In this document: in pieces, positions 5,257-30,251 of the stretch
Position numbering within the stretch: position 1 is the stretch's first letter
Layout: every line of letters starts with the position of its first letter
Assembly (NCBI GenBank): GCA_963696395.1
Contig: CAVOJZ010000001.1
Location: 1-36,137 of the forward strand
Direction: 5' to 3'
From: an uncultured bacterium
Lineage (GTDB): Bacteria > Patescibacteriota > Minisyncoccia > UBA6257 > 2-01-FULL-56-20
Length of the DNA: 36,137 nt
Notes under the pieces: generated by a model
Seen by the model: the letters and a program-made list of their open reading frames with translations, nothing else
Database searches by the model: none
Told to the model about the DNA's origin: nothing
Made by a program: the position numbers and the translations under genes

Positions 5257-7728
5257 ATGGATAAATCTAACAAACACATTTTGCAATATGAAGAAGTCGG
5301 CATAAAAGATGTCGGAATGGTCGGAGGGAAAAATGCCTCGCTCGGGGAGATGATTCGAACGCTTCATGAAAAGAAAGTGCCCGTGCCGTCGGGCTTTGTG
5401 GTCACCGCTTCCGCGTATTTTTATTTCCTGGAAAAAACAGGACTCGATAAGTTTATTAAAGATACATTAAAAGGACTTAATACCAAAAATTTGGCGGAGT
5501 TGCATCGTTGCGGCTCGACAATTCGCTCAGCCATTATGAAAACCGAATTTCCGAAAGACTTGGCTGACGAAATCGTACATGCTTACCACGGACTCGAAAA
5601 GAAATACGGGAAAAATGCCGATGTTGCCGTCCGTTCATCCGCGACCGCGGAAGATCTGCCTGGTGCGAGTTTTGCCGGCGAACAAGAAAGTTATCTTGGT
5701 ATTCGAGGTGCGAGCCAGGTTTCCGAAGCAGTGCGAGCCACCATGGCTTCGCTTTTCACCGATCGCGCGATCTCTTATCGCACGGATCGGGGGTTCGATC
5801 ACATGAAGATTGCATTATCGGCTGGCGTGCAAAAAATGGTTCGTTCGGATCAGGCCTGCTCAGGTGTTATGTTTTCGCTCGATACCGAATCGGGTTTCCC
5901 GAATGTGGTGATTATAAACGGATCCTGGGGGCTCGGCGAAATGATTGTTAAGGGCGAAGTGACGCCCGATGAATTTCTTGTCTGGAAGGAAGGAATCAAG
6001 CAGGGAATCCAAAAACCAATAATCGACAAAAAACTTGGCGTGAAACTCCGCAAGATGATTTATCATCACGGCGCAAACATTCAACAGACAAAAGTGATTC
6101 CAACATCACAGGCGGAACGGGATTCGTTCGTGCTGACCGATGATGAAGTGATGAAACTCGCGACGTGGGGAACGATCATCGAGAAGCATTATTCGGATCA
6201 TTACAAGAAATGGACGCCAATGGATATGGAGTGGGCCAAAGATGGCGTTACGGGTGAACTTTTCATTGTGCAGGCGAGACCCGAAACCGTTCACGCCAAT
6301 CAGGACTTTTCCAAGATCAAGGAATACGTGCCGCTCGAGCATCGCGAACCGATTCTGATGGGGGCTTCGGTGGGTTCAAAAATCGCAACAGGCAAGGCTC
6401 ATGTGATTATGGACACAAAACACATCGCGGATTTTCGCAAGGGCGAAATTTTGGTAACGACAATGACCGATCCGGACTGGGAGCCGATTATGAAAATGGC
6501 TTCTGCAATCGTGACCGACAAGGGTGGCAGGACTTCGCATGCCGCTATTGTTTCGCGTGAACTTGGTATTCCCGCGATCGTGGGCACGGAAAAAGCAACC
6601 AAAATAATCAAATCGGGCGATGAAATTACCGTTGATACGACCGGCAGTGCCGGGAACATTTATAGAGGATTTTTGAAATTCAAGGTGGTGGAGCACGACC
6701 TTAAGAAAATTCCGAAACCCAAGACGAAGATCATGATCAATGTTGCGATACCCGATAGCGCTTTTGAGACATCGTTTCTTCCGAATGACGGTGTCGGGCT
6801 CGCACGCGAGGAGTTCATAATCGCATCAAAAATGGGTCTGCATCCGATGGCTTTGCTTAATTTAAGCGCCCAAACTCCGGCGGTTCGAAAAGCGATCGAA
6901 GAAAAAATGCGAGGATGGAAAGATCCAAAAAAATATTACGTGGACAATCTCGCCTATGGAATCGCAAAAATTGGCGCGGCATTTTACCCGAACCATGTGA
7001 TTGTCCGGTTTTCCGACTTCAAGACAAACGAATATCGAACACTGCTTGGCGGTGAGATGTACGAACCGAAAGAAGAGAATCCGATGATCGGCTGGCGCGG
7101 AGCGTCACGATATTATGATCCGAAATTTAAGCCGGCGTTTATGCTCGAAGCCGCCGCAGTGAAAAAAGTCCGGGAAGAACTCGGTCTTACCAATGTCATT
7201 CCCATGGTCCCGTTTTGCAGAACCGTGGAAGAGGGGATTAAGGTTCAGGAAACGATGGCGGAGGCAGGCCTCATTACGAATTACATCGCCCGCACGCGGA
7301 AAGTTCGGCACGCTCTCAAATCATTGGCGAATGGGAAAAAGGCAACAACCACGCCAATCTATGTTATGTGTGAAATTCCCTCAAACGTTTTAAATGCGGA
7401 CGCCTTCTTGGACATATTCGACGGCATGTCGATTGGATCAAATGATTTAACCCAGCTGACCATGGGCCTCGATCGTGATTCAGGTATTGTGACGAAAATT
7501 GCAAACGAAAAAAATCCCGCAGTGGAGCGGCTGATCGCGGAAATCATCGCAAAATGCCGAAAGCAGAAAAAGTATATAGGTATTTGCGGCCAGGGGCCGT
7601 CCGATTATCCTGATTTTGCGGAATTTCTTGTCGGATGTGGGATCGAAAGCATGTCTCTTAATCCGGATACCGTTGTCCGCACCACGGTGGCGGTGGCTAA
7701 AAAAGAAAAAGAAATGAAAAAAAGATAA
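5257..7728 (+). CDS. ppsA: Phosphoenolpyruvate synthase (pyruvate, water dikinase)
   Basis: VGGKNASLGEM, AVRSSATAEDLPGASFAGEQE, DMEWAKDG..LFIVQARPETVH, phospho-His GGRTSHAAIVSRE, GVGLAREEF, ENPMIGWRGASRY, SIGSNDLTQ and GICGQGPSD. Confidence 0.97.
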   Translation: MDKSNKHILQYEEVGIKDVGMVGGKNASLGEMIRTLHEKKVPVPSGFVVTASAYFYFLEKTGLDKFIKDTLKGLNTKNLAELHRCGSTIRSAIMKTEFPKDLADEIVHAYHGLEKKYGKNADVAVRSSATAEDLPGASFAGEQESYLGIRGASQVSEAVRATMASLFTDRAISYRTDRGFDHMKIALSAGVQKMVRSDQACSGVMFSLDTESGFPNVVIINGSWGLGEMIVKGEVTPDEFLVWKEGIKQGIQKPIIDKKLGVKLRKMIYHHGANIQQTKVIPTSQAERDSFVLTDDEVMKLATWGTIIEKHYSDHYKKWTPMDMEWAKDGVTGELFIVQARPETVHANQDFSKIKEYVPLEHREPILMGASVGSKIATGKAHVIMDTKHIADFRKGEILVTTMTDPDWEPIMKMASAIVTDKGGRTSHAAIVSRELGIPAIVGTEKATKIIKSGDEITVDTTGSAGNIYRGFLKFKVVEHDLKKIPKPKTKIMINVAIPDSAFETSFLPNDGVGLAREEFIIASKMGLHPMALLNLSAQTPAVRKAIEEKMRGWKDPKKYYVDNLAYGIAKIGAAFYPNHVIVRFSDFKTNEYRTLLGGEMYEPKEENPMIGWRGASRYYDPKFKPAFMLEAAAVKKVREELGLTNVIPMVPFCRTVEEGIKVQETMAEAGLITNYIARTRKVRHALKSLANGKKATTTPIYVMCEIPSNVLNADAFLDIFDGMSIGSNDLTQLTMGLDRDSGIVTKIANEKNPAVERLIAEIIAKCRKQKKYIGICGQGPSDYPDFAEFLVGCGIESMSLNPDTVVRTTVAVAKKEKEMKKR

Positions 7729-19750: not shown

Positions 19751-20134
19751 ATGCAAGAGCTCAAGAAAGCGAATGTGGTCGGCTATTCATCGCAAGACAG
19801 CATTCGCAAATTTTTTCCGATCTGGATTTGCCGGGAACCAATTGTAATTCCAGAAGTAAGTTTTGACATCGACGAACCCATAATCCTACCTTCGCATCCG
19901 GAAGGGATTAAGCGGCTCACCGCATGCAACGTCGAACACGTAAAAGCGGTTGCCAAGAATTTTGTCCACGTCTTGATGTACGGACAACTGAAAGGCGGTT
20001 CGTCTTTCCTTGCAATTTGCGACATCACGACAGGACGTGGGGCGATCATTATCGGAGCAGAAAGAAAATCCACGAGGCCTTCTCAAAGGGGCCTCGCTTT
20101 TGTTATGATGAGGCATAATGTTTGGCGATTTTAA
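19751..20134 (+). CDS. Hypothetical protein (127 aa, orphan)
   Basis: GGAGG at 19741-19745 lies 5 nt before ATG 19751, and the ORF fills the gap between murC and the nuclease. No recognisable motif. The 3' end overlaps the next gene by 17 nt. Confidence 0.5.
   Translation: MQELKKANVVGYSSQDSIRKFFPIWICREPIVIPEVSFDIDEPIILPSHPEGIKRLTACNVEHVKAVAKNFVHVLMYGQLKGGSSFLAICDITTGRGAIIIGAERKSTRPSQRGLAFVMMRHNVWRF
20073..20101 (+). terminator. Terminator-like hairpin
   Basis: CGAGGCC(20073-79)/GGCCTCG(20090-96) stem followed by CTTTT. Confidence 0.45.
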
Positions 20135-20888
20135 AAACAGCACTGACTTTAAAGAACAGTGTGGCTACACCATTGACGACGTTTGGTATCCGCGCGTCAC
20201 GAAGATTGTGAGCATAAAGTCAAAGCCGGCTCTCTATTATTACTACGGTGAAGCAAAAAGCTATAAGGCTGCCCAAGATGCAACCGAGCAGTCTGCAAAG
20301 GAGGGCACAATGATCCATGAGGCCGTAGAAGGACTTCTTCTCGGAAAGAATCCTGAGATTCCCGAACAAATTGCGCCTGCCGTGAAATCGTTTTGGGAAT
20401 TTTTCCAGAAAAATAATATTCAGGTGACACCCGATCGTGTTGAGCGGCGGATTGTGAATTATGATCATCGCTACGCCGGAACCGTTGATGCGATAGCGAT
20501 GATCGGAGGAAGGCTTGGCGTGCTCGACATCAAGACATCACAAGCAATCTATCGTGATTACTGTTTGCAAACCTCGGCTTATATGGATGCCCTGAAAGGC
20601 CAATTTAAAGATCTTGAAACGCGCTGGATACTAAAAATTGACCAGGTTCAATATTGCGACCATTGCGGAGCCCGCCGGCGCATTAAGGGTGGCAACGAAA
20701 AAATAAAAATTGACTGGAGGAATCGACAAATGAAAACCTGTGAACACGTATGGGGTCCCCTCGCGGGCGATATTGAATTGCAAGAGTTTCCATCCTGGCA
20801 GAGCGATTTTGAAGCATTTCTTGGGGCAAAACGCCTTTGGGAATGGGAAAACGAAGGGTGGCTAAAGGCCGTAGGATATATGGCGTGA
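20118..20888 (+). CDS. PD-(D/E)XK nuclease superfamily protein (RecB/YqaJ-like) with a putative Zn-binding insert
   Basis: GT.IH67, E109, YAGTVD124, LD137IK139T and Q151xxxY155; C180xxC183 ... C208xH210. Confidence 0.85.
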   Translation: MFGDFKNSTDFKEQCGYTIDDVWYPRVTKIVSIKSKPALYYYYGEAKSYKAAQDATEQSAKEGTMIHEAVEGLLLGKNPEIPEQIAPAVKSFWEFFQKNNIQVTPDRVERRIVNYDHRYAGTVDAIAMIGGRLGVLDIKTSQAIYRDYCLQTSAYMDALKGQFKDLETRWILKIDQVQYCDHCGARRRIKGGNEKIKIDWRNRQMKTCEHVWGPLAGDIELQEFPSWQSDFEAFLGAKRLWEWENEGWLKAVGYMA

Positions 20889-20964
20889 AACGAGTCAGGT
20901 CTGAATATCGTATAATTAAGAAGTAAAGGGTCGATATCAATTTAACCATAAAAACAATACATCT

Positions 20965-21306
20965 ATGTCAAAAACAGCAATTTGGTCAGTCGTTGTGATC
21001 GTCGTGCTTGCCATTGCAGGCGGACTTTTGTGGTGGAACATGAATCAGGGACAAAGTGCAGTCCAAACATCGAACAACGCTGCTCCCGCAGCGACGACGG
21101 CAGAAAACACCCCCTCGGTGGCATCAACATCAAGCAATGGTAATCCGAGCCAATCCGAAGCTGTAGCGTTGCCGAGTGGCAATTCCGATCAGGCCATCAA
21201 TCAGGAATTGACGGATATAAACACCCAGATGAACGGATTGAATTCCGATTCTGCAAGTGTGAACCAAAGCGAAAACGATCAGCCGGTACAGCAAACACAG
21301 TTATAA
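20965..21306 (+). CDS. Small single-pass membrane protein with low-complexity Ser/Asn/Gln ectodomain
   Basis: N-terminal TM (AIWSVVVIVVLAIAGGLLWW), a polar tail and a short predicted helix DQAINQELTDINTQMNGL. TATAAT at 20912-20917. Confidence 0.8.
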   Translation: MSKTAIWSVVVIVVLAIAGGLLWWNMNQGQSAVQTSNNAAPAATTAENTPSVASTSSNGNPSQSEAVALPSGNSDQAINQELTDINTQMNGLNSDSASVNQSENDQPVQQTQL

Positions 21307-21330
21307 ACGTCGAAATTACCCACCACACTC

Positions 21331-22215
21331 ATGAAACAGAAATTTAATTCGTTCGCCGCCATCTGCGGGGCGATCCTTATCAGCGCCTCAAGCGTTGCAA
21401 TCCCCGCTTTTGCAGCAACATCTGCCGATCTTGGCGTGTCGGCCCCGCCGATCGCTTCAGGAACTGTCATTGGTCACGTCGGTCTTGGTAGTACCACTCG
21501 CAGTGGAAACATAACGGCTGCCCGTGCCAATCTAATCACAAAAGCCGGCAATGCCGCCAATCAGGAAATTACTCGTCGAATAACAGCGTTAAACGCCTTG
21601 AGCACGCGGGTGAATGCCATGGTAAAACTTTCCGCCGATGAAAAAAGCACGATCTCCGCTTCAATCCAGTCGCAGATAACCTTGATGAATAACCTTCAGG
21701 CCCAAATCACGGCTGACATCAATTCCGGAGCGACGTCATCTCTTAAGATGGATATCCAATCAATAACAAAATCCTACCGGATTTTCGCTTTGATACTCCC
21801 CCAGGGAACTATTGAAGCGGCTGTCGATCGGATACTGGACATCGCAGGTATCCTGTCTGATCTTTCAACCAAGCTTCAGGCGCGAATTTCCGCGGCTCCT
21901 TCAACAACCAATGTCTCCGGAGCGCAGGGGGCACTCACTGACATGAATGCGAAAGTTGCCGATGCAATTGCGCAGGCAAATGCGGCTAACAGCGAAATTG
22001 CTCCGCTTGTCCCCGACAATGGCGATGCAACGATTATGAAATCGAACACCGCCGCGCTCAAGGATGCACGATCAAAGATCCAGGCTGCGCAGAAAGACTT
22101 AACAGCAGCCCAGAAAGACGCCAACACGATCGCGAAGGATCTGCGGGTGCAAACGGTTAATACAGCGACCACAACGGCAGTTTCTGCGAGCACAAGCGCA
22201 AACGTAAGTCAGTAG
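21331..22215 (+). CDS. Secreted, largely alpha-helical/coiled-coil protein
   Basis: Signal peptide ending IPAFA; Ala/Gln/Thr-rich heptad-like helices; 294 aa. Confidence 0.8.
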   Translation: MKQKFNSFAAICGAILISASSVAIPAFAATSADLGVSAPPIASGTVIGHVGLGSTTRSGNITAARANLITKAGNAANQEITRRITALNALSTRVNAMVKLSADEKSTISASIQSQITLMNNLQAQITADINSGATSSLKMDIQSITKSYRIFALILPQGTIEAAVDRILDIAGILSDLSTKLQARISAAPSTTNVSGAQGALTDMNAKVADAIAQANAANSEIAPLVPDNGDATIMKSNTAALKDARSKIQAAQKDLTAAQKDANTIAKDLRVQTVNTATTTAVSASTSANVSQ

Positions 22216-22242
22216 GATTTACGGCAAAACTTACTCATATTT

Positions 22243-22269
22243 AAAAGCGCTCCTCACTGGGGCGCTTTT
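22243..22269. terminator. Bidirectional intrinsic terminator
   Basis: AAAAGCGC-TCC-TCACT-GGG-GCGCTTTT: an 8-bp perfect stem plus 3 further pairs (one G-U), with A4/T4 flanks, 28 nt after the stop at 22215. Confidence 0.8.
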
Positions 22270-22298
22270 AAATTTTCGATGTTAAACAATCGCCGGAT

Positions 22299-22331
22299 AA
22301 AAAAACCCCAGCTTCTTTGAAGATAGCTGGG
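22299..22331 (-). terminator. Intrinsic terminator closing the large minus-strand RNA
   Basis: The minus strand reads CCCAGCT-ATCTTCAAAGA-AGCTGGG-G-TTTTTTT: a 7-bp perfect stem followed by U7. Confidence 0.8.
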
Positions 22332-23003
22332 ATTGCATTCCCAAGGAGAAGGCGGCGCCAGAGGGTGAACTCCAGCCATTCTAACGATCGAAATCGTCAG
22401 TCAAGTTGGAGCACAAGCTCTGCGCTCGGCCATCTCCGCTGGAAATGTTGTAAAGAGTTTTTTCTACGATCAAGGGTTAAGCCTCGACCAAGCAGCGTTA
22501 TTGGAAAAAATTGGCTTCGATCTTTCGATCGATCGCTACTTTCAGGTAATCGGATTTCCTGCACCACATAAGGCAACAGCACAACCATTGCCGACCCTAA
22601 GTTAGTTTTCGTTTGCGCTTTTCAACGCTCACGACAACAAGTCCTTTGGAACAACGGTTACCATTGTGCCGACTGTAACGCAGATCCTTTCATCTGAGCA
22701 GGCAGGTCGATTCAGTGTATCAACCCGAGTCACTTCGCGCACTTCGGCGTTTGGTTCTCTGCGAACAGAAACCCTAACGTTTTATTTGCACTACGCAACC
22801 CACACTTCCATTACTGGAAGTGCCCCGAGCTTTTTCCGGCTCGAACTCTCTACTTATCGCCTAACCATGCCGCCTACAAACTTTCGTACAACGTCGCCTT
22901 GCGGTTCTGTTGTCGCCTTTGCGCTGCCGCTCTGGCGATTGCTTGCTAGCCTTGGTCAAGCAGATTCTTCCGTTCAATTTGTAATACCCGCTTGGGGTTC
23001 CTG
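22299..23003 (-). ncRNA. Large (~700 nt) highly structured non-coding RNA candidate, GOLLD/ROOL-class (family unverified)
   Basis: No credible ORF in about 890 bp. It has its own promoter (23010-23037) and terminator (22299-22331), at least ten hairpins whose G-U pairs and GNRA/UUCG loops read correctly on the minus strand, and complementary 5' and 3' segments. Confidence 0.78.
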
Positions 23004-23009
23004 ATATCC

Positions 23010-23037
23010 ATACTACGGCATATAAAAATCGAGTCAA
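23010..23037 (-). promoter_or_regulatory. Sigma70-type promoter for the large RNA
   Basis: Minus strand TTGACT(23037-23032)-N16-TAGTAT(23015-23010); predicted start near 23003. Confidence 0.7.
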
Positions 23038-23041
23038 TAGC

Positions 23042-23063
23042 AAAAAAGGCCATTTTAGGCCTT
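23042..23063 (-). terminator. Terminator-like hairpin ending the upstream minus-strand gene pair
   Basis: Minus strand AAGGCC-TAAAAT-GGCCTT-TTTT, between the stop at 23109 and the RNA promoter. Confidence 0.55.
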
Positions 23064-23108
23064 AAAATGCTAATAAACTGAATAACCTGTGGAATCGCTG
23101 TGGAGAAA

Positions 23109-23789
23109 TTACTGCCAAACCGTCGAAACAGGCACCATTTCCGAGTATTGCACCGATGGGAGGGTTGACGTAGGCATAGTGAGCGATCCAACTTCCGCCA
23201 TCCAAACGCTTGAACTTGAGTTCAAGTCACCAAAAATCATACTTTCCCCAGGATTCGGCGAGCTGCAAGCGTAATAACCAATTGTGCCGCTTGCCGTGAA
23301 TGGCCTGGTCCCGGTAAATGGTGTGCAATAAGTCCCGTCAGCAAGTTGCACCGCCCAAGCCCAGTTGGTTGGCACTGTTACCGGAGTGGATGTCGCCGGC
23401 AAGGCTTTCGTCAGGTGTAATACAAACGTGGATGTTGCATACGGACCCTCGGCTGGATTTATGCCGCACAGCAGATCTTTGCTTCCCAAGATCTGGAAAC
23501 AAGGATCGCTGATGGCATTTCCAACGGTACAACGCCACGCATCGCTTCGGTAAGGAGCTGCGATTGAGTTCGTAAAGCAGGTTCCATTTTCAATCGGCGT
23601 ACTACTTGCTGGAGCACTTGCGGCAAAGGTAACCACCTGCGTTGGATTCGCTGCAACAGCCGGTGTCTCTCCCGCTGGCGTTTGGCTTGTATTCGAATTG
23701 ATGTTCGAAAAAGCAAAAAATTGCCCGACGCCGAACAAGATCACAATAAAGAAAACAATTATAGCTCCAATTTTGCTGGTTTTGTTCAT
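23109..23789 (-). CDS. Membrane-anchored extracellular protein with six-Cys domain
   Basis: N-terminal TM (IGAIIVFFIVILFGVGQFFAF), a Thr/Pro/Ala linker, then GTCF, WRCT, DPCF, LLCG, TYCT and YACS. Confidence 0.8.
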   Translation of the reverse strand: MNKTSKIGAIIVFFIVILFGVGQFFAFSNINSNTSQTPAGETPAVAANPTQVVTFAASAPASSTPIENGTCFTNSIAAPYRSDAWRCTVGNAISDPCFQILGSKDLLCGINPAEGPYATSTFVLHLTKALPATSTPVTVPTNWAWAVQLADGTYCTPFTGTRPFTASGTIGYYACSSPNPGESMIFGDLNSSSSVWMAEVGSLTMPTSTLPSVQYSEMVPVSTVWQ

Positions 23790-24509
23790 TTATTTGAACT
23801 GGAAGGTCTGAACGATGCGATCCAAAAGCGAGGTTATCTGGTTGTCGTCAAACGGTTTTAGATTGTACTGTGCCGGGTAGCTTGCAATTTGACCGGAATG
23901 AACCGTGTATTCAATGGCGTAACACTGTCCCCCGTGCAGTGTCCGATAACTGGTTGTCTCGTAATAATTCCCGGCGCCGGCGTCCGCAGACTTAAAAACA
24001 GTAAATTGAACGCCGTTAATCATCGCCGTCGTGCTCGCGGTTGATGGGCCTCCGGTTTGATCGGGCGCCAAGCAGTCAGCGATTGCGTTATTGTTGCGGC
24101 TGCTGCCAACCGTGAGTTTCGCATCGGCAAAATTTGTTTGCGGTTCGAATGCCGATGGGACGGTTATGGCAAAAAATTGGTTGCCCTGACTACCGTTTGC
24201 TCCGAGCCGCCAATCCGGGGTCGGGGTCAGTGTGTAATTCTGGTCAACCGAAAAATCGATCGGGTAGGCAATGCTAAATCCCCCATTATCGCTTTGCCCA
24301 ACCTGCCACTCTGATGGATTCGAATAATAACTCGCACCACTATCGCCGGATGTTGTTATGACGGATGTTTGACCCATTTGATTCGCCTGCGCAATGGTTT
24401 CGCCATATTGAATGCCGTAGTAAAAACCAATAAATGGAAAAACAACGAAGATTGCGGCTGCAATCAGCTTTGAATACCACGTCACTCGATGCCATTCGAT
24501 GTTCGCCAT
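23790..24509 (-). CDS. Membrane-anchored extracellular protein, possibly PsbP/Mog1-like fold
   Basis: N-terminal TM; GGFSIAYPIDF and a terminal YAIEYT...LLDRIVQTFQF, a pattern I associate with PsbP-like domains (fold call is tentative). Abuts the downstream gene. Confidence 0.75.
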   Translation of the reverse strand: MANIEWHRVTWYSKLIAAAIFVVFPFIGFYYGIQYGETIAQANQMGQTSVITTSGDSGASYYSNPSEWQVGQSDNGGFSIAYPIDFSVDQNYTLTPTPDWRLGANGSQGNQFFAITVPSAFEPQTNFADAKLTVGSSRNNNAIADCLAPDQTGGPSTASTTAMINGVQFTVFKSADAGAGNYYETTSYRTLHGGQCYAIEYTVHSGQIASYPAQYNLKPFDDNQITSLLDRIVQTFQFK

Positions 24510-29006: not shown

Positions 29007-30251
29007 ATGAAACTTACTGATTCAATAAAATCCGCGCGGGCAACGCTAAAGCACGGCAAAACACGTTCGCTGCTTACCATGCTTGGCATTGTGATCGGGA
29101 TTGCTTCGGTCATCATTTTGATGTCCATTGGCCAATCGGCGCAGGATTTGATTTTAAATCAAGTCGAAGGCATCGGTTCAAACCTCATTTTCATAATTCC
29201 CGGCGGAACCAACGGCAAGTTCCAGTCGCCTGCCGCAGCCCAGGGTGTCATCATAAAAACATTGGTTCAGGCAGACGTTGACGCTTTATCGCGAGAACCT
29301 TCAATCAGCGGCGTCGCTCCGATCGTGAACGGTCAGACGAACGCGGTGTACGGAGATAACAACCTTACGATAACGTATCAGGGCGTCACGGCAAACTTTT
29401 TTTCCATCAGAAACTATACCGTTACGAATGGACTTCCTTTTACCGACCAGGACGTATCGGCCTACAATCACGTGACGGTTATCGGATCGGATCTCGCAAC
29501 AACGCTTTTTGGAAAAAACATCGACCCGATCAATAAGAGCATCCGCCTTGGCAACACCACATTTCGGGTGGTCGGCGTTTTGAAACCGATGGGCGTAGGA
29601 CCGGGCGGCATAAACCAGGATGACCTTGCACTTGTGCCTGTGACGGTGGCGCAAAATCAAATGCTCGGCATCAATTACTTCCAATATGTGCTCGTAGAAG
29701 CAAATCCTTCTTATAACACCTCGTTCGTCACTTCTCGAATCCAATCGGTTCTCGAACAAGACCACGAAATCACCAGTTCAACGAAAGATGACTTTACCAT
29801 TCAAACCCAGGCGGACATCCTTTCGTTGCTTGGCAACATCACTTCCATTCTGACTATTTTCCTCACGGCAATCGCCTCGATATCACTTATCGTGGGAGGC
29901 ATTGGCATTATGAACATCATGCTCGTCTCAGTGATCGAACGAACGCGCGAAATCGGGTTGCGAAAAGCAGTCGGAGCCACCGACCGCGACATTATGCAAC
30001 AATTTCTTGTTGAAGCTGTAATGCTTACGTTCATTGGAGGCATAATCGGAATTGCCCTCGGCGCCATTTTCGTAACACTTGTTTATCTTGTACTATCCAA
30101 TTTTTTTGCGATTGGCTGGGTTTTCGCCTTCCCGTTGTCTGCGGTTGTGATTGCCGTTATCGTCTCAAGTGTTACCGGAGTTGGCTTCGGTATATATCCG
30201 GCGCGGCAGGCTGCCCGAAAAAGCCCTATTGAGGCTTTGCGGTACGAGTAA
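29007..30251 (+). CDS. MacB-type (FtsX-family) ABC permease
   Basis: RSLLTMLGIVIGIASV, ISLIVGGIGIMNIMLVSVIERTREIGLRKAVGA and GIYPARQAARKSPIEALRYE. Confidence 0.95.
   Translation: MKLTDSIKSARATLKHGKTRSLLTMLGIVIGIASVIILMSIGQSAQDLILNQVEGIGSNLIFIIPGGTNGKFQSPAAAQGVIIKTLVQADVDALSREPSISGVAPIVNGQTNAVYGDNNLTITYQGVTANFFSIRNYTVTNGLPFTDQDVSAYNHVTVIGSDLATTLFGKNIDPINKSIRLGNTTFRVVGVLKPMGVGPGGINQDDLALVPVTVAQNQMLGINYFQYVLVEANPSYNTSFVTSRIQSVLEQDHEITSSTKDDFTIQTQADILSLLGNITSILTIFLTAIASISLIVGGIGIMNIMLVSVIERTREIGLRKAVGATDRDIMQQFLVEAVMLTFIGGIIGIALGAIFVTLVYLVLSNFFAIGWVFAFPLSAVVIAVIVSSVTGVGFGIYPARQAARKSPIEALRYE

Follow-up and report, generated by a model that had tools for sequence, protein, structure and literature searches.

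A large structured RNA gene, probably of an undescribed family, in a clade of soil Minisyncoccota

We analysed a 36,137-bp stretch of DNA from an uncultured bacterium (contig CAVOJZ010000001.1; the whole stretch is called the window below). A gap of about 890 bp between two convergent protein genes in this window holds a gene for a structured RNA of about 705 nt, encoded on the minus strand. The gene is real, and the fold of its minus-strand RNA is under selection in at least five of the nine genomes that carry it. The RNA belongs to no Rfam 15 family. Taken as a whole, the observations are probably best explained if a stand-alone gene here encodes a structured non-coding RNA whose family has not been described before and is confined to one clade of soil Minisyncoccota.

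The gap is bounded by the end of a 294-amino-acid (aa) gene on the plus strand (22215) and the end of a 226-aa gene on the minus strand (23109). Only short, unsupported open reading frames (ORFs) are listed between these positions. None of them has a Pfam match, and no long ORF appears in the gap under genetic codes 4 or 25, which leads us to reject an alternative genetic code. An earlier note, made from the sequence alone, had described the roughly 890 bp as lacking a credible protein gene, and this description holds.

The gap contains a separate minus-strand transcription unit, 23003-22299, with its own promoter and terminator (Table 1). The -35 and -10 elements that the earlier note had picked out were recovered by a promoter scan, and a promoter of the form TTGAC(G/T)-16/17-TAnnAT is present in 9/9 of the loci described below. 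The proposed hairpin and U7 terminator is likewise borne out by the sequence, the minimum-free-energy fold and terminator-like alignments. Its hairpin spans 22334-22306 and was not listed by a simple terminator scan. A hairpin followed by a U run ends the RNA in 9/9 loci. The terminator of the upstream 226-aa gene stands between that gene and the RNA promoter. A second hairpin beyond the RNA terminator lies outside the RNA and is likely the bidirectional terminator of the convergent 294-aa gene. Positions within the RNA are given as p, where the window coordinate is 23003-p.

Table 1. Coordinates of the RNA gene, its parts and the adjoining signals in the window
Feature	Window coordinates	Strand	Basis or remark
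Upstream box, TCCACAG-N3-TTCCACAGGTTATTCAGTTT	23075..23104	-	near-invariant in 9/9 loci; unique in window
Terminator of upstream 226-aa gene: hairpin AAGGCC-TAAAAT-GGCCTT (23063-23046) and T run	23041..23063	-	terminator scan, sequence
Sigma-70-type promoter: -35 TTGACT (23037-23032), 16-nt spacer, -10 TAGTAT (23015-23010)	23010..23037	-	promoter scan
RNA, about 705 nt	22299..23003	-	start predicted at 23007-23002; 3′ end at U7 tract
5′ domain: branched hairpin (RNA 38-147) closed by AUCUGCUUGACCA / UGGUUAGGCGAU (RNA 38-50/136-147)	22856..22965	-	
Long-range helix: 5′ strand GUAGAGAGUU, partner 22450-22459 (RNA 150-159/544-553)	22844..22853	-	closes central multi-branch domain
Hairpin GCACUUCCA-GUAA-UGGAAGUGU, GNRA loop	22802..22823	-	
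Two conserved central-junction arms: UUCG-capped arm (22748-22779) and hairpin GGGUUGAU-ACACUGA-AUCGACCU (22704-22726)	22704..22779	-	
Variable long arm (RNA 302-461)	22542..22701	-	deleted in L082, poorly conserved elsewhere (per-helix table)
Conserved core: stem AAGUAGCG/CGCUGCUU (22534-22541 with 22490-22497; RNA 462-469/506-513)	22468..22541	-	
Junction island AAAAAACUCUUUACAACAUUUCC, including 3′ strand of long-range helix (22450-22459)	22441..22463	-	alignments
3′ domain: long imperfect hairpin (RNA 556-667), GGAGA/UCUCC basal stem	22336..22447	-	minimum-free-energy fold
RNA intrinsic terminator: stem AAUCCCAGCUAUCU / AGAAGCUGGGG, then U7 (22305-22299)	22299..22334	-	sequence, fold, terminator-like alignments
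Second hairpin AAAAGCGCC-CCAGUGAGG-AGCGCUUUU, A/T runs on both sides	22243..22269	.	sequence, fold
Contig from RNA-seq run X3, 257 nt, 100% identical	22417..22673	.	only X3 contig on the whole 36,137-bp window

The minus strand from 23003 to 22299 has a predicted folding energy of -273.6 kcal/mol, far below the -216.2 +/- 5.6 of dinucleotide-shuffled controls (z -10.25), a comparison by which the earlier note had wanted its idea to be judged. The plus strand of the same stretch gives z -4.0, and 12 other 705-nt stretches of the window, taken on both strands, range from -3.4 to +2.0. In the nine homologous gaps, z is -5.1 to -10.4 in the direction of the promoter and -3.0 to -5.8 in reverse.

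The tetraloops of the predicted folds show the same strand preference. GNRA or UNCG loops account for 6/8 tetraloops on the minus strand of the window RNA and 0/7 on the plus strand, in agreement with the earlier note, which had seen GNRA/UUCG loops only when reading the minus strand. Across the nine loci such loops make up 47/77 tetraloops, compared with 22/245 in shuffled sequences and 5/70 on the opposite strand (Fisher p=1.4e-12, forward versus opposite strand). An accumulation of hairpins resembling repetitive extragenic palindromes or miniature inverted-repeat transposable elements was considered and rejected, given that the tetraloop bias is strand-specific and that the window contains no further copies of the RNA.

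Twelve hairpins had been listed in the earlier note, and most of them are present in the minimum-free-energy fold. These are the hairpins at 22802-22823 (GUAA loop), 22517-22532 and 22615-22628 (both GAAA), 22381-22400 (UUCG), 22468-22489, 22704-22726 and 22826-22843, and a UUCG hairpin near 22760. For the remaining four (22409-27, 22572-92, 22681-96 and 22940-62), the fold and the homologs favour longer-range pairings instead.

An nhmmer search with the RNA against 80 MurC-anchored loci from GTDB genomes returned only the identical contig, L001. Since sequence search alone failed, we sought homologs by synteny through the 226-aa protein and took the contigs of eleven of its relatives. Eight further loci (L082, L084, L086, L087, L159, L160, L161 and L163), in which this protein is 63-81% identical, have a gap of 760-930 nt between the 226-aa gene and the convergent gene, with an RNA of 620-770 nt. 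All nine loci share the upstream box, the promoter, a conserved start region (GAUAUCAG or GAUURAGU) and the intrinsic terminator. The cassette is missing in L003, L169 and L170, where the 226-aa protein is 55-59% identical and the gap is only 17-100 nt, with a single bidirectional terminator. Given that the RNA occurs with relatives of the protein at 63-81% identity and with none at 55-59%, the cassette is confined to one clade, and was gained at the base of this clade or else lost in lineages outside it. The empty sites (L003:3465-3603, L169:3684-3701 and L170:3690-3787) are clean, and could help to date when the cassette was gained or lost. Only about nine loci of this narrow family are known, reached through 13 protein clusters.

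These loci also bear on whether the gap could hold a missed protein gene, a small-protein mRNA or an untranslated region of a neighbouring gene. Such an explanation would be compatible with the open stretches, up to 132 codons long, of the plus strand and with the ORFs that public gene callers placed in some homologous gaps. However, no ORF in any of the six frames is conserved across the nine loci; homologs that conserve an ORF rather than the stems would, by the earlier note, have counted against the RNA. The few short peptide matches between loci are in inconsistent frames, and lie mostly over promoter or junction-island stretches. The terminator between the upstream gene and the promoter, the convergent and non-overlapping downstream gene and the Pfam and genetic-code results given above also speak against it, and we consider a coding or untranslated-region origin extremely improbable. 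An antisense RNA to the convergent gene is rejected, since the two do not overlap.

Several of the homologous RNA gaps have been given hypothetical ORFs of 34-155 aa by public gene callers (L082:5000-5467, L083:4779-4883, L085:3052-3192, L088:4645-4794 and 5387-5719, L159:4345-4524 and L160:2602-2826). Conservation between loci is seen for none of these ORFs, and they are probably erroneous predictions. The public annotation of these metagenome-assembled genomes (MAGs) covers the RNA gene with spurious ORFs.

A common structural plan could be read from the window, L082, L159, L086 and L087, that is, five of the nine loci. The plan begins with the branched 5′ domain, whose closing stem is retained at 12/12 pairs in L082 and 11/12 in L159. 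An inner stem (66-69:86-89) is retained in L082 with 4 compensatory pairs, and both sides have changed in 12/26 of the pairs that RNAalifold predicts for this domain. The long-range helix that follows retains 10/10 pairs in L082, 9/10 in L159, 9/10 in L087 and 7/10 in L163.

Hairpins of the central domain occupy RNA positions 160-177, 180-201 (GNRA loop), 224-255 (an arm with a UUCG loop) and 277-299. The GUAA hairpin is particularly well supported. In a sequence-only MAFFT alignment, 7/7 of its aligned pairs show compensatory changes, and the hairpin is 96% paired; the pairs are retained at 8/8 in L086 and 8/9 in L087. The UUCG arm and the hairpin at 22704-22726 retain 10/12 and 7/8 pairs, respectively, in L082 and 8/10 and 6/6 in L159, and the ACACUGA loop of the latter hairpin is common to the window and L159. 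For the central junction as a whole (4 sequences, sequence-only MAFFT), 90% of cells are paired, versus 22-37% when the partners are slid. Both sides have changed in 17/27 pairs (slid: 0-4), and the covariation score is 0.72 (slid: 0.17 or less).

The core stem encloses hairpin A, UCGAUC-GAAA-GAUCGA (22517-22532, RNA 471-486), and is followed by hairpin B (22468-22489, RNA 514-535). In five sequences, 85% of core cells are paired, versus 32-60% with slid partners. Both sides have changed in 11/23 pairs (slid: 1-7), and the covariation score is 0.54 (slid: 0.27 or less). A covariance model of the core built only from the window, L082 and L159 matches the L086 core at its syntenic position (35.9 bits, E=1.2e-6), a non-circular test in that L086 is outside the seeds of the model. 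The best matches of this model in L160 and L087 are weak (E ~0.35) and fall exactly at the expected core position. It has no match in L084, in L161 or in the loci without the RNA. A five-sequence model, R1, recovered only its own seeds.

The junction island is the best-conserved sequence within the RNA body, and can be recognised by eye in 8/9 loci. In the 3′ domain, the apical hairpin CUGACGAU-UUCG-AUCGUUAG (22381-22400) is retained at 8/8 pairs in both L159 and L160, and the basal stem at 17/19 in L082 and at 22/34, with 9 double changes, in L086. MAFFT alignments of the 3′ domain and of whole gaps were too poor for use. With a crude aligner that uses pairing propensity, the window-fold pairs are retained at 75% in L082, 67% in L159, 60% in L086 and 54% in L087, as compared with 58%, 44%, 41% and 39%, respectively, in reversed-sequence decoys. 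L160 and L163 resemble each other (72-77% versus ~60%) and are globally unlike the window.

Compensatory changes, whose absence the earlier note had named as a sign that its idea was wrong, are found in the core, the central junction and the 5′ domain. Overall, a structure conserved through such changes is supported for five of the nine loci and is not seen in L084 and L161; for L160 and L163 the support is confined to the core. The stand-alone structured RNA gene of about 700 nt proposed in that note is supported by the folding energy, the one-strand tetraloops, the synteny, promoter and terminator kept in nine genomes, the compensatory changes, the lack of a conserved ORF and the metatranscriptome contig described below. 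The description of the RNA as ornate is apt in one sense only: the RNA is highly structured, but its sequence is poorly conserved, and it does not have the many invariant nucleotides of OLE or ROOL.

The best-conserved sequence of the whole cassette is the upstream box, which exceeds the RNA itself in conservation. Its consensus over the nine loci is YYCACAG-N3-TTCCACAGGTTATYCAGTTT. Five loci have 37 nt between the box and the -35 element and the other four have 27-28 nt, a difference of one helical turn, as is expected if protein binding depends on helical face. The relatives without the RNA lack the box. We presume from its sequence and spacing that the box is a binding site for a regulator.

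In the window and the eight further loci, the box is made up of a direct CACAG repeat, its half-sites 11 nt apart, and then TTATYCAGTTT, and is in parts like a DnaA box (TTCTCCACA versus TTATCCACA, with 8/9 positions matching). Judging from these similarities, the box may be a site for a response regulator or for DnaA. A replication origin or dif site is rejected, given that the box is no palindrome and that RNA-less relatives lack it. A metagenome scan for the box sequence TTCCACAGGNTATNCAGTTT gave 70 stretches, of which two were true; both belong to loci already known (L118, which is L088, and L156, which is L084). The other stretches are chance or coding matches, including the box-like L098 and L142, the former of which lies inside a transporter gene. 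Neither the junction island nor the box had a true copy in the viral contigs scanned.

Index searches of public runs located the RNA sequence in three 2024 soil runs that are typed only ‘DNA?’ and in a small soil RNA-seq run from 2015, X3, with 6.3 Mb of contigs. The X3 contig that matches the window lies entirely within the RNA gene (Table 1). The probability that a single contig from contaminating DNA would fall at random in a 705-nt gene is ~2%, which supports preferential, and probably high, expression. The abundance suggested in the earlier note is thereby supported, by a single, unstranded metatranscriptome contig. Another run, X7, contains just 4% of the L087 RNA words. The RNA runs X5 and X6 have one contig each with a 44-nt match only at window positions 29889-29932, with 3 mismatches and then unrelated sequence. 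We rejected these contigs as expression of this genome; they correspond to a conserved MacB/FtsX-type permease motif from other organisms.

We compared the RNA with known families. The 4227 models of Rfam 15 gave no match at gathering thresholds anywhere in the window. At E<10, a search of 22150-23150 returned only terminator-like small RNA (sRNA) noise at 22297-22368, and at E<5 the RNA gaps of the eight homologous loci gave no match. These searches include RNase P RNA, tmRNA, signal recognition particle RNA, 6S RNA and rRNA fragments, and ARAGORN also finds no tmRNA. Group I and group II introns, HEARO/omega RNA and retron non-coding RNA have no covariance-model match, and the window has no gene for a reverse transcriptase, IscB/TnpB or a homing endonuclease.

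A divergent member of the GOLLD, ROOL or OLE families would agree with the similar size (~700 nt), the many helices capped by GNRA or UUCG loops and the apparent abundance. The typical location of GOLLD and ROOL is a phage or prophage, close to tRNA islands (PMC12286853, PMC5737381). By contrast, the RNA gene described here lies outside any phage or prophage, among housekeeping genes only, with no tRNA in 36 kb and with no true copy in viral contigs. The searches at E<10 and E<5 gave no GOLLD, ROOL or OLE match. Membership in one of these families is therefore very improbable. The earlier note had suggested a likeness to GOLLD-type RNAs, which is not supported by the GOLLD covariance model in the window or in the eight loci. 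Of its two suggestions, a divergent GOLLD/ROOL relative or a new class, only the new class is consistent with the missing Rfam matches and with the lack of tRNA and phage context. We found no description in the literature of such an RNA in bacteria of the candidate phyla radiation (CPR).

Several observations, besides the small number of loci, weigh against our preferred explanation. The RNA body can hardly be aligned, even in the pair with 81% identity in the neighbouring protein: between the window and L082, nhmmer finds only two segments, of 35 and 30 bits. Searches with blastn among the RNA bodies recover islands only, and no 8-mer is common to at least six of the nine loci. Only the core is common to L160 and L163. 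The bodies of L084 and L161 (~730-770 nt) resemble nothing, each other included, and GNRA/UNCG loops make up only 1/5 and 0/5 of their tetraloops. The L084 and L161 bodies disagree with the neighbouring-protein tree, which has L084 and L159 as sisters. Such divergence is unusual for an RNA in which the exact architecture matters. The covariation tests rest on 3-5 sequences, with structures taken from those same alignments, and are for these reasons suggestive and below R-scape grade. The expression evidence is the one low-depth, unstranded contig.

Given that the neighbouring protein of L084 is sister to that of L159 and that the L084 body is unalignable, this body was either replaced or has diverged beyond recognition. 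At some loci, replacement of the body seems to have taken place. L084 (4682-5554) and L161 (3685-4616) keep the box, the promoter, the terminator and a shared start, GAUURGUUCUUURACA.

One interpretation of this pattern is a non-adaptive or selfish transcribed cassette, such as the remnant of an inserted element, in which structure would serve stability only and the body would be replaceable. The restriction to one clade and the clean absence from L003, L169 and L170 agree with this interpretation, as do the unrelated bodies of L084 and L161 behind a conserved box and promoter, with L084 sister to L159. Yet the cassette is retained in nine genomes, with the neighbouring protein down to 63% identity, and these genomes of ~0.8-0.9 Mb (from contig sizes) leave little room for non-functional DNA. 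Specific helices are preserved by compensatory changes. Moreover, the window has no repeats of the RNA, no mobile-element genes lie nearby, and the viral contigs have no copies. We regard a selfish cassette as unlikely.

The same pattern could also reflect a large CPR RNA with a conserved cassette and a folded body that is under rapid diversifying or replacement evolution. Such an RNA might be an effector or an RNA-only nano-assembly that takes part in conflicts or in host or phage interactions. The basis for this idea is the presence of three or four mutually unalignable bodies at one locus, and we think that it is probably not correct, with a likelihood about as low as that of the selfish cassette. 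If true, it would be an evolutionary mode undescribed for any large bacterial RNA, and would place the RNA between an ultra-small symbiont and its host or phages.

A structured, functional RNA could act in several ways. A trans-acting riboregulator or sponge would use the junction island or loops to pair with mRNAs, or would titrate a protein or RNase, while the rest of the molecule would provide stability. Conservation of short islands amid a drifting remainder is what such an RNA would show, and the promoter looks regulated, with its phased upstream box. However, ~700 nt with selected tetraloops and a long-range architecture goes far beyond the needs of an sRNA that carries a seed. The listed loops have no repeated GGA-type protein-binding motif, and no target was identified. 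We consider riboregulation possible but rather doubtful.

Large and complex bacterial RNAs are often catalytic, as has been argued (PMC5737381), and the GNRA loops suggest tertiary docking. Both points would fit a large ribozyme or another catalytic RNA. On the other hand, very few nucleotides of the body are invariant, no canonical 11-nt tetraloop receptor was found in the RNA, no Rfam ribozyme or intron matches, and the distribution is narrow. Catalysis is quite unlikely on these grounds. We also identified no conserved palindromic kissing loop.

The likeliest of the modes considered is that the RNA acts as a compact, abundant scaffold, whether as a ribonucleoprotein or as an RNA-only assembly. 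This possibility, which we regard as reasonable but still somewhat short of an even chance, comes from the evolutionary pattern. A tiny conserved core with fast-changing arms is expected of a scaffold RNA; a ribozyme whose invariant core is extended, or a seed-type sRNA, would be less likely to show this combination. We infer that, in a scaffold, the shape and the small junction would matter, and not base-pairing with targets or coding.

The proposed sequence of events is as follows. A regulator would bind the phased upstream box, and transcription would start near 23003 and end at the U7 tract. The transcript would then fold into the branched 5′ domain, the central multi-branch domain closed by the long-range helix, and the long 3′ hairpin. 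GNRA loops could dock into helices to give a compact particle. Its functional centre would be the small conserved junction, made up of the long-range helix, the core stem with hairpins A and B, and the island, and the peripheral arms would be free to change in length and sequence.

The host of the RNA is a chromosome of the Minisyncoccota (Paceibacteria/CPR). The closest relatives of the MurC protein encoded in the window, at 44-54% identity, are from MAGs labelled Minisyncoccia, Liptonbacteria or Patescibacteria, and homologs of the 226-aa protein carry the name Candidatus Paceibacterota (now Minisyncoccota at NCBI). The CPR-like chromosome suspected in the earlier note is thereby confirmed. 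The window encodes TrmD, ComEC, a glycerate-kinase-like protein, PPDK, enolase, FtsW, MurG, GltX and MurC, as well as MacAB-type exporters, RRF and HolB-like proteins, and all neighbours of the RNA gene in the window encode housekeeping, transport or surface proteins. We found no tRNA or tmRNA in the window (the latter by ARAGORN), no phage, reverse transcriptase, IscB/TnpB or CRISPR gene in it, and no mobile-element genes near the RNA gene.

The three genes nearest to the RNA are 21331-22215 (+), 23109-23789 (-) and 23790-24509 (-). Their products are orphans of no Pfam family, each with an N-terminal anchor or signal-like segment, and the 294-aa protein is rich in Ala, Thr and Ser, with the look of a coiled coil. 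The label ‘eukaryotic-like serine/threonine-protein kinase’, given by one source to some 226-aa protein homologs, has no support in this analysis. Genomes without the RNA also have the adjacent 226- and 239-aa proteins, neither of which matches Pfam. Since these neighbouring surface-protein genes persist where the RNA is absent, they are not specific partners of it.

The second hairpin, at 22243-22269, and the CGACAACCAAAAAGGCGC that precedes it are kept between distant loci, with equivalents in L086, L087 and L161. Between L086 and L161 this stretch is 96% identical over 25 nt, which is above most of the RNA body. The cumulative GC skew of the window peaks at ~20000-23000, where gene orientation switches from mostly plus to mostly minus. 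The RNA gene may be close to the terminus of replication, or the skew may simply reflect which way the genes are transcribed.

Large, complex non-coding RNAs are rare in bacteria, and each of the large classes OLE, ROOL and GOLLD proved biochemically unusual. If confirmed, the RNA described here would be a new fold for structural study and a natural experiment in which a large RNA architecture was gained, then eroded or replaced, within one clade. It would also be a probable case of regulated RNA expression in unculturable organisms.

In size class, many junctions and tetraloops, the RNA is like ROOL and GOLLD. ROOL RNAs average 581 nt, and the ROOL model has six multistem junctions together with three pseudoknots; many GOLLD members exceed 800 nt. 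The presence of a variable region beside a conserved region recalls the 5′ and 3′ halves of GOLLD. Both ROOL and GOLLD are candidates for RNA-only assemblies and form nanocages. Unlike these RNAs, which occur in several phyla, the RNA described here is distributed in one clade.

OLE (RF01071) is similar in being a stand-alone RNA of ~600-700 nt with a multi-domain fold and apparently high expression. It is also chromosomal and not phage-borne, and the neighbouring genes in both cases encode membrane-anchored proteins. OLE assembles into a ribonucleoprotein and into dimers. Many of its nucleotides are highly conserved, its hosts are among anaerobic or extremophilic Bacillota, and it has the partner genes oapA, oapB and oapC. 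The new RNA differs in its poorly conserved sequence and CPR host, and has no match to the OLE covariance model. As for an oapA-type partner, the adjacent 226- and 239-aa proteins gave none by Pfam, a result obtained without a dedicated OapA profile search.

The raiA-motif RNA is likewise intergenic, independently transcribed, structured and apparently abundant. It is ~200 nt long and well conserved in sequence, and is present in over 2,500 species, whereas the RNA described here is 3-4 times larger, rare and fast-evolving. In evolutionary mode only, there is a resemblance to telomerase RNA, in that a small conserved core is accompanied by variable arms, and alignability is soon lost between close relatives. 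This is an analogy, with neither homology nor a template region. The RNA represents a new family, restricted to one clade, within a known kind, the large stand-alone structured bacterial RNAs, and is set apart from OLE, ROOL, GOLLD and raiA by its CPR host, its narrow distribution, its low conservation, the apparent replacement of its body at some loci and its phased upstream box.

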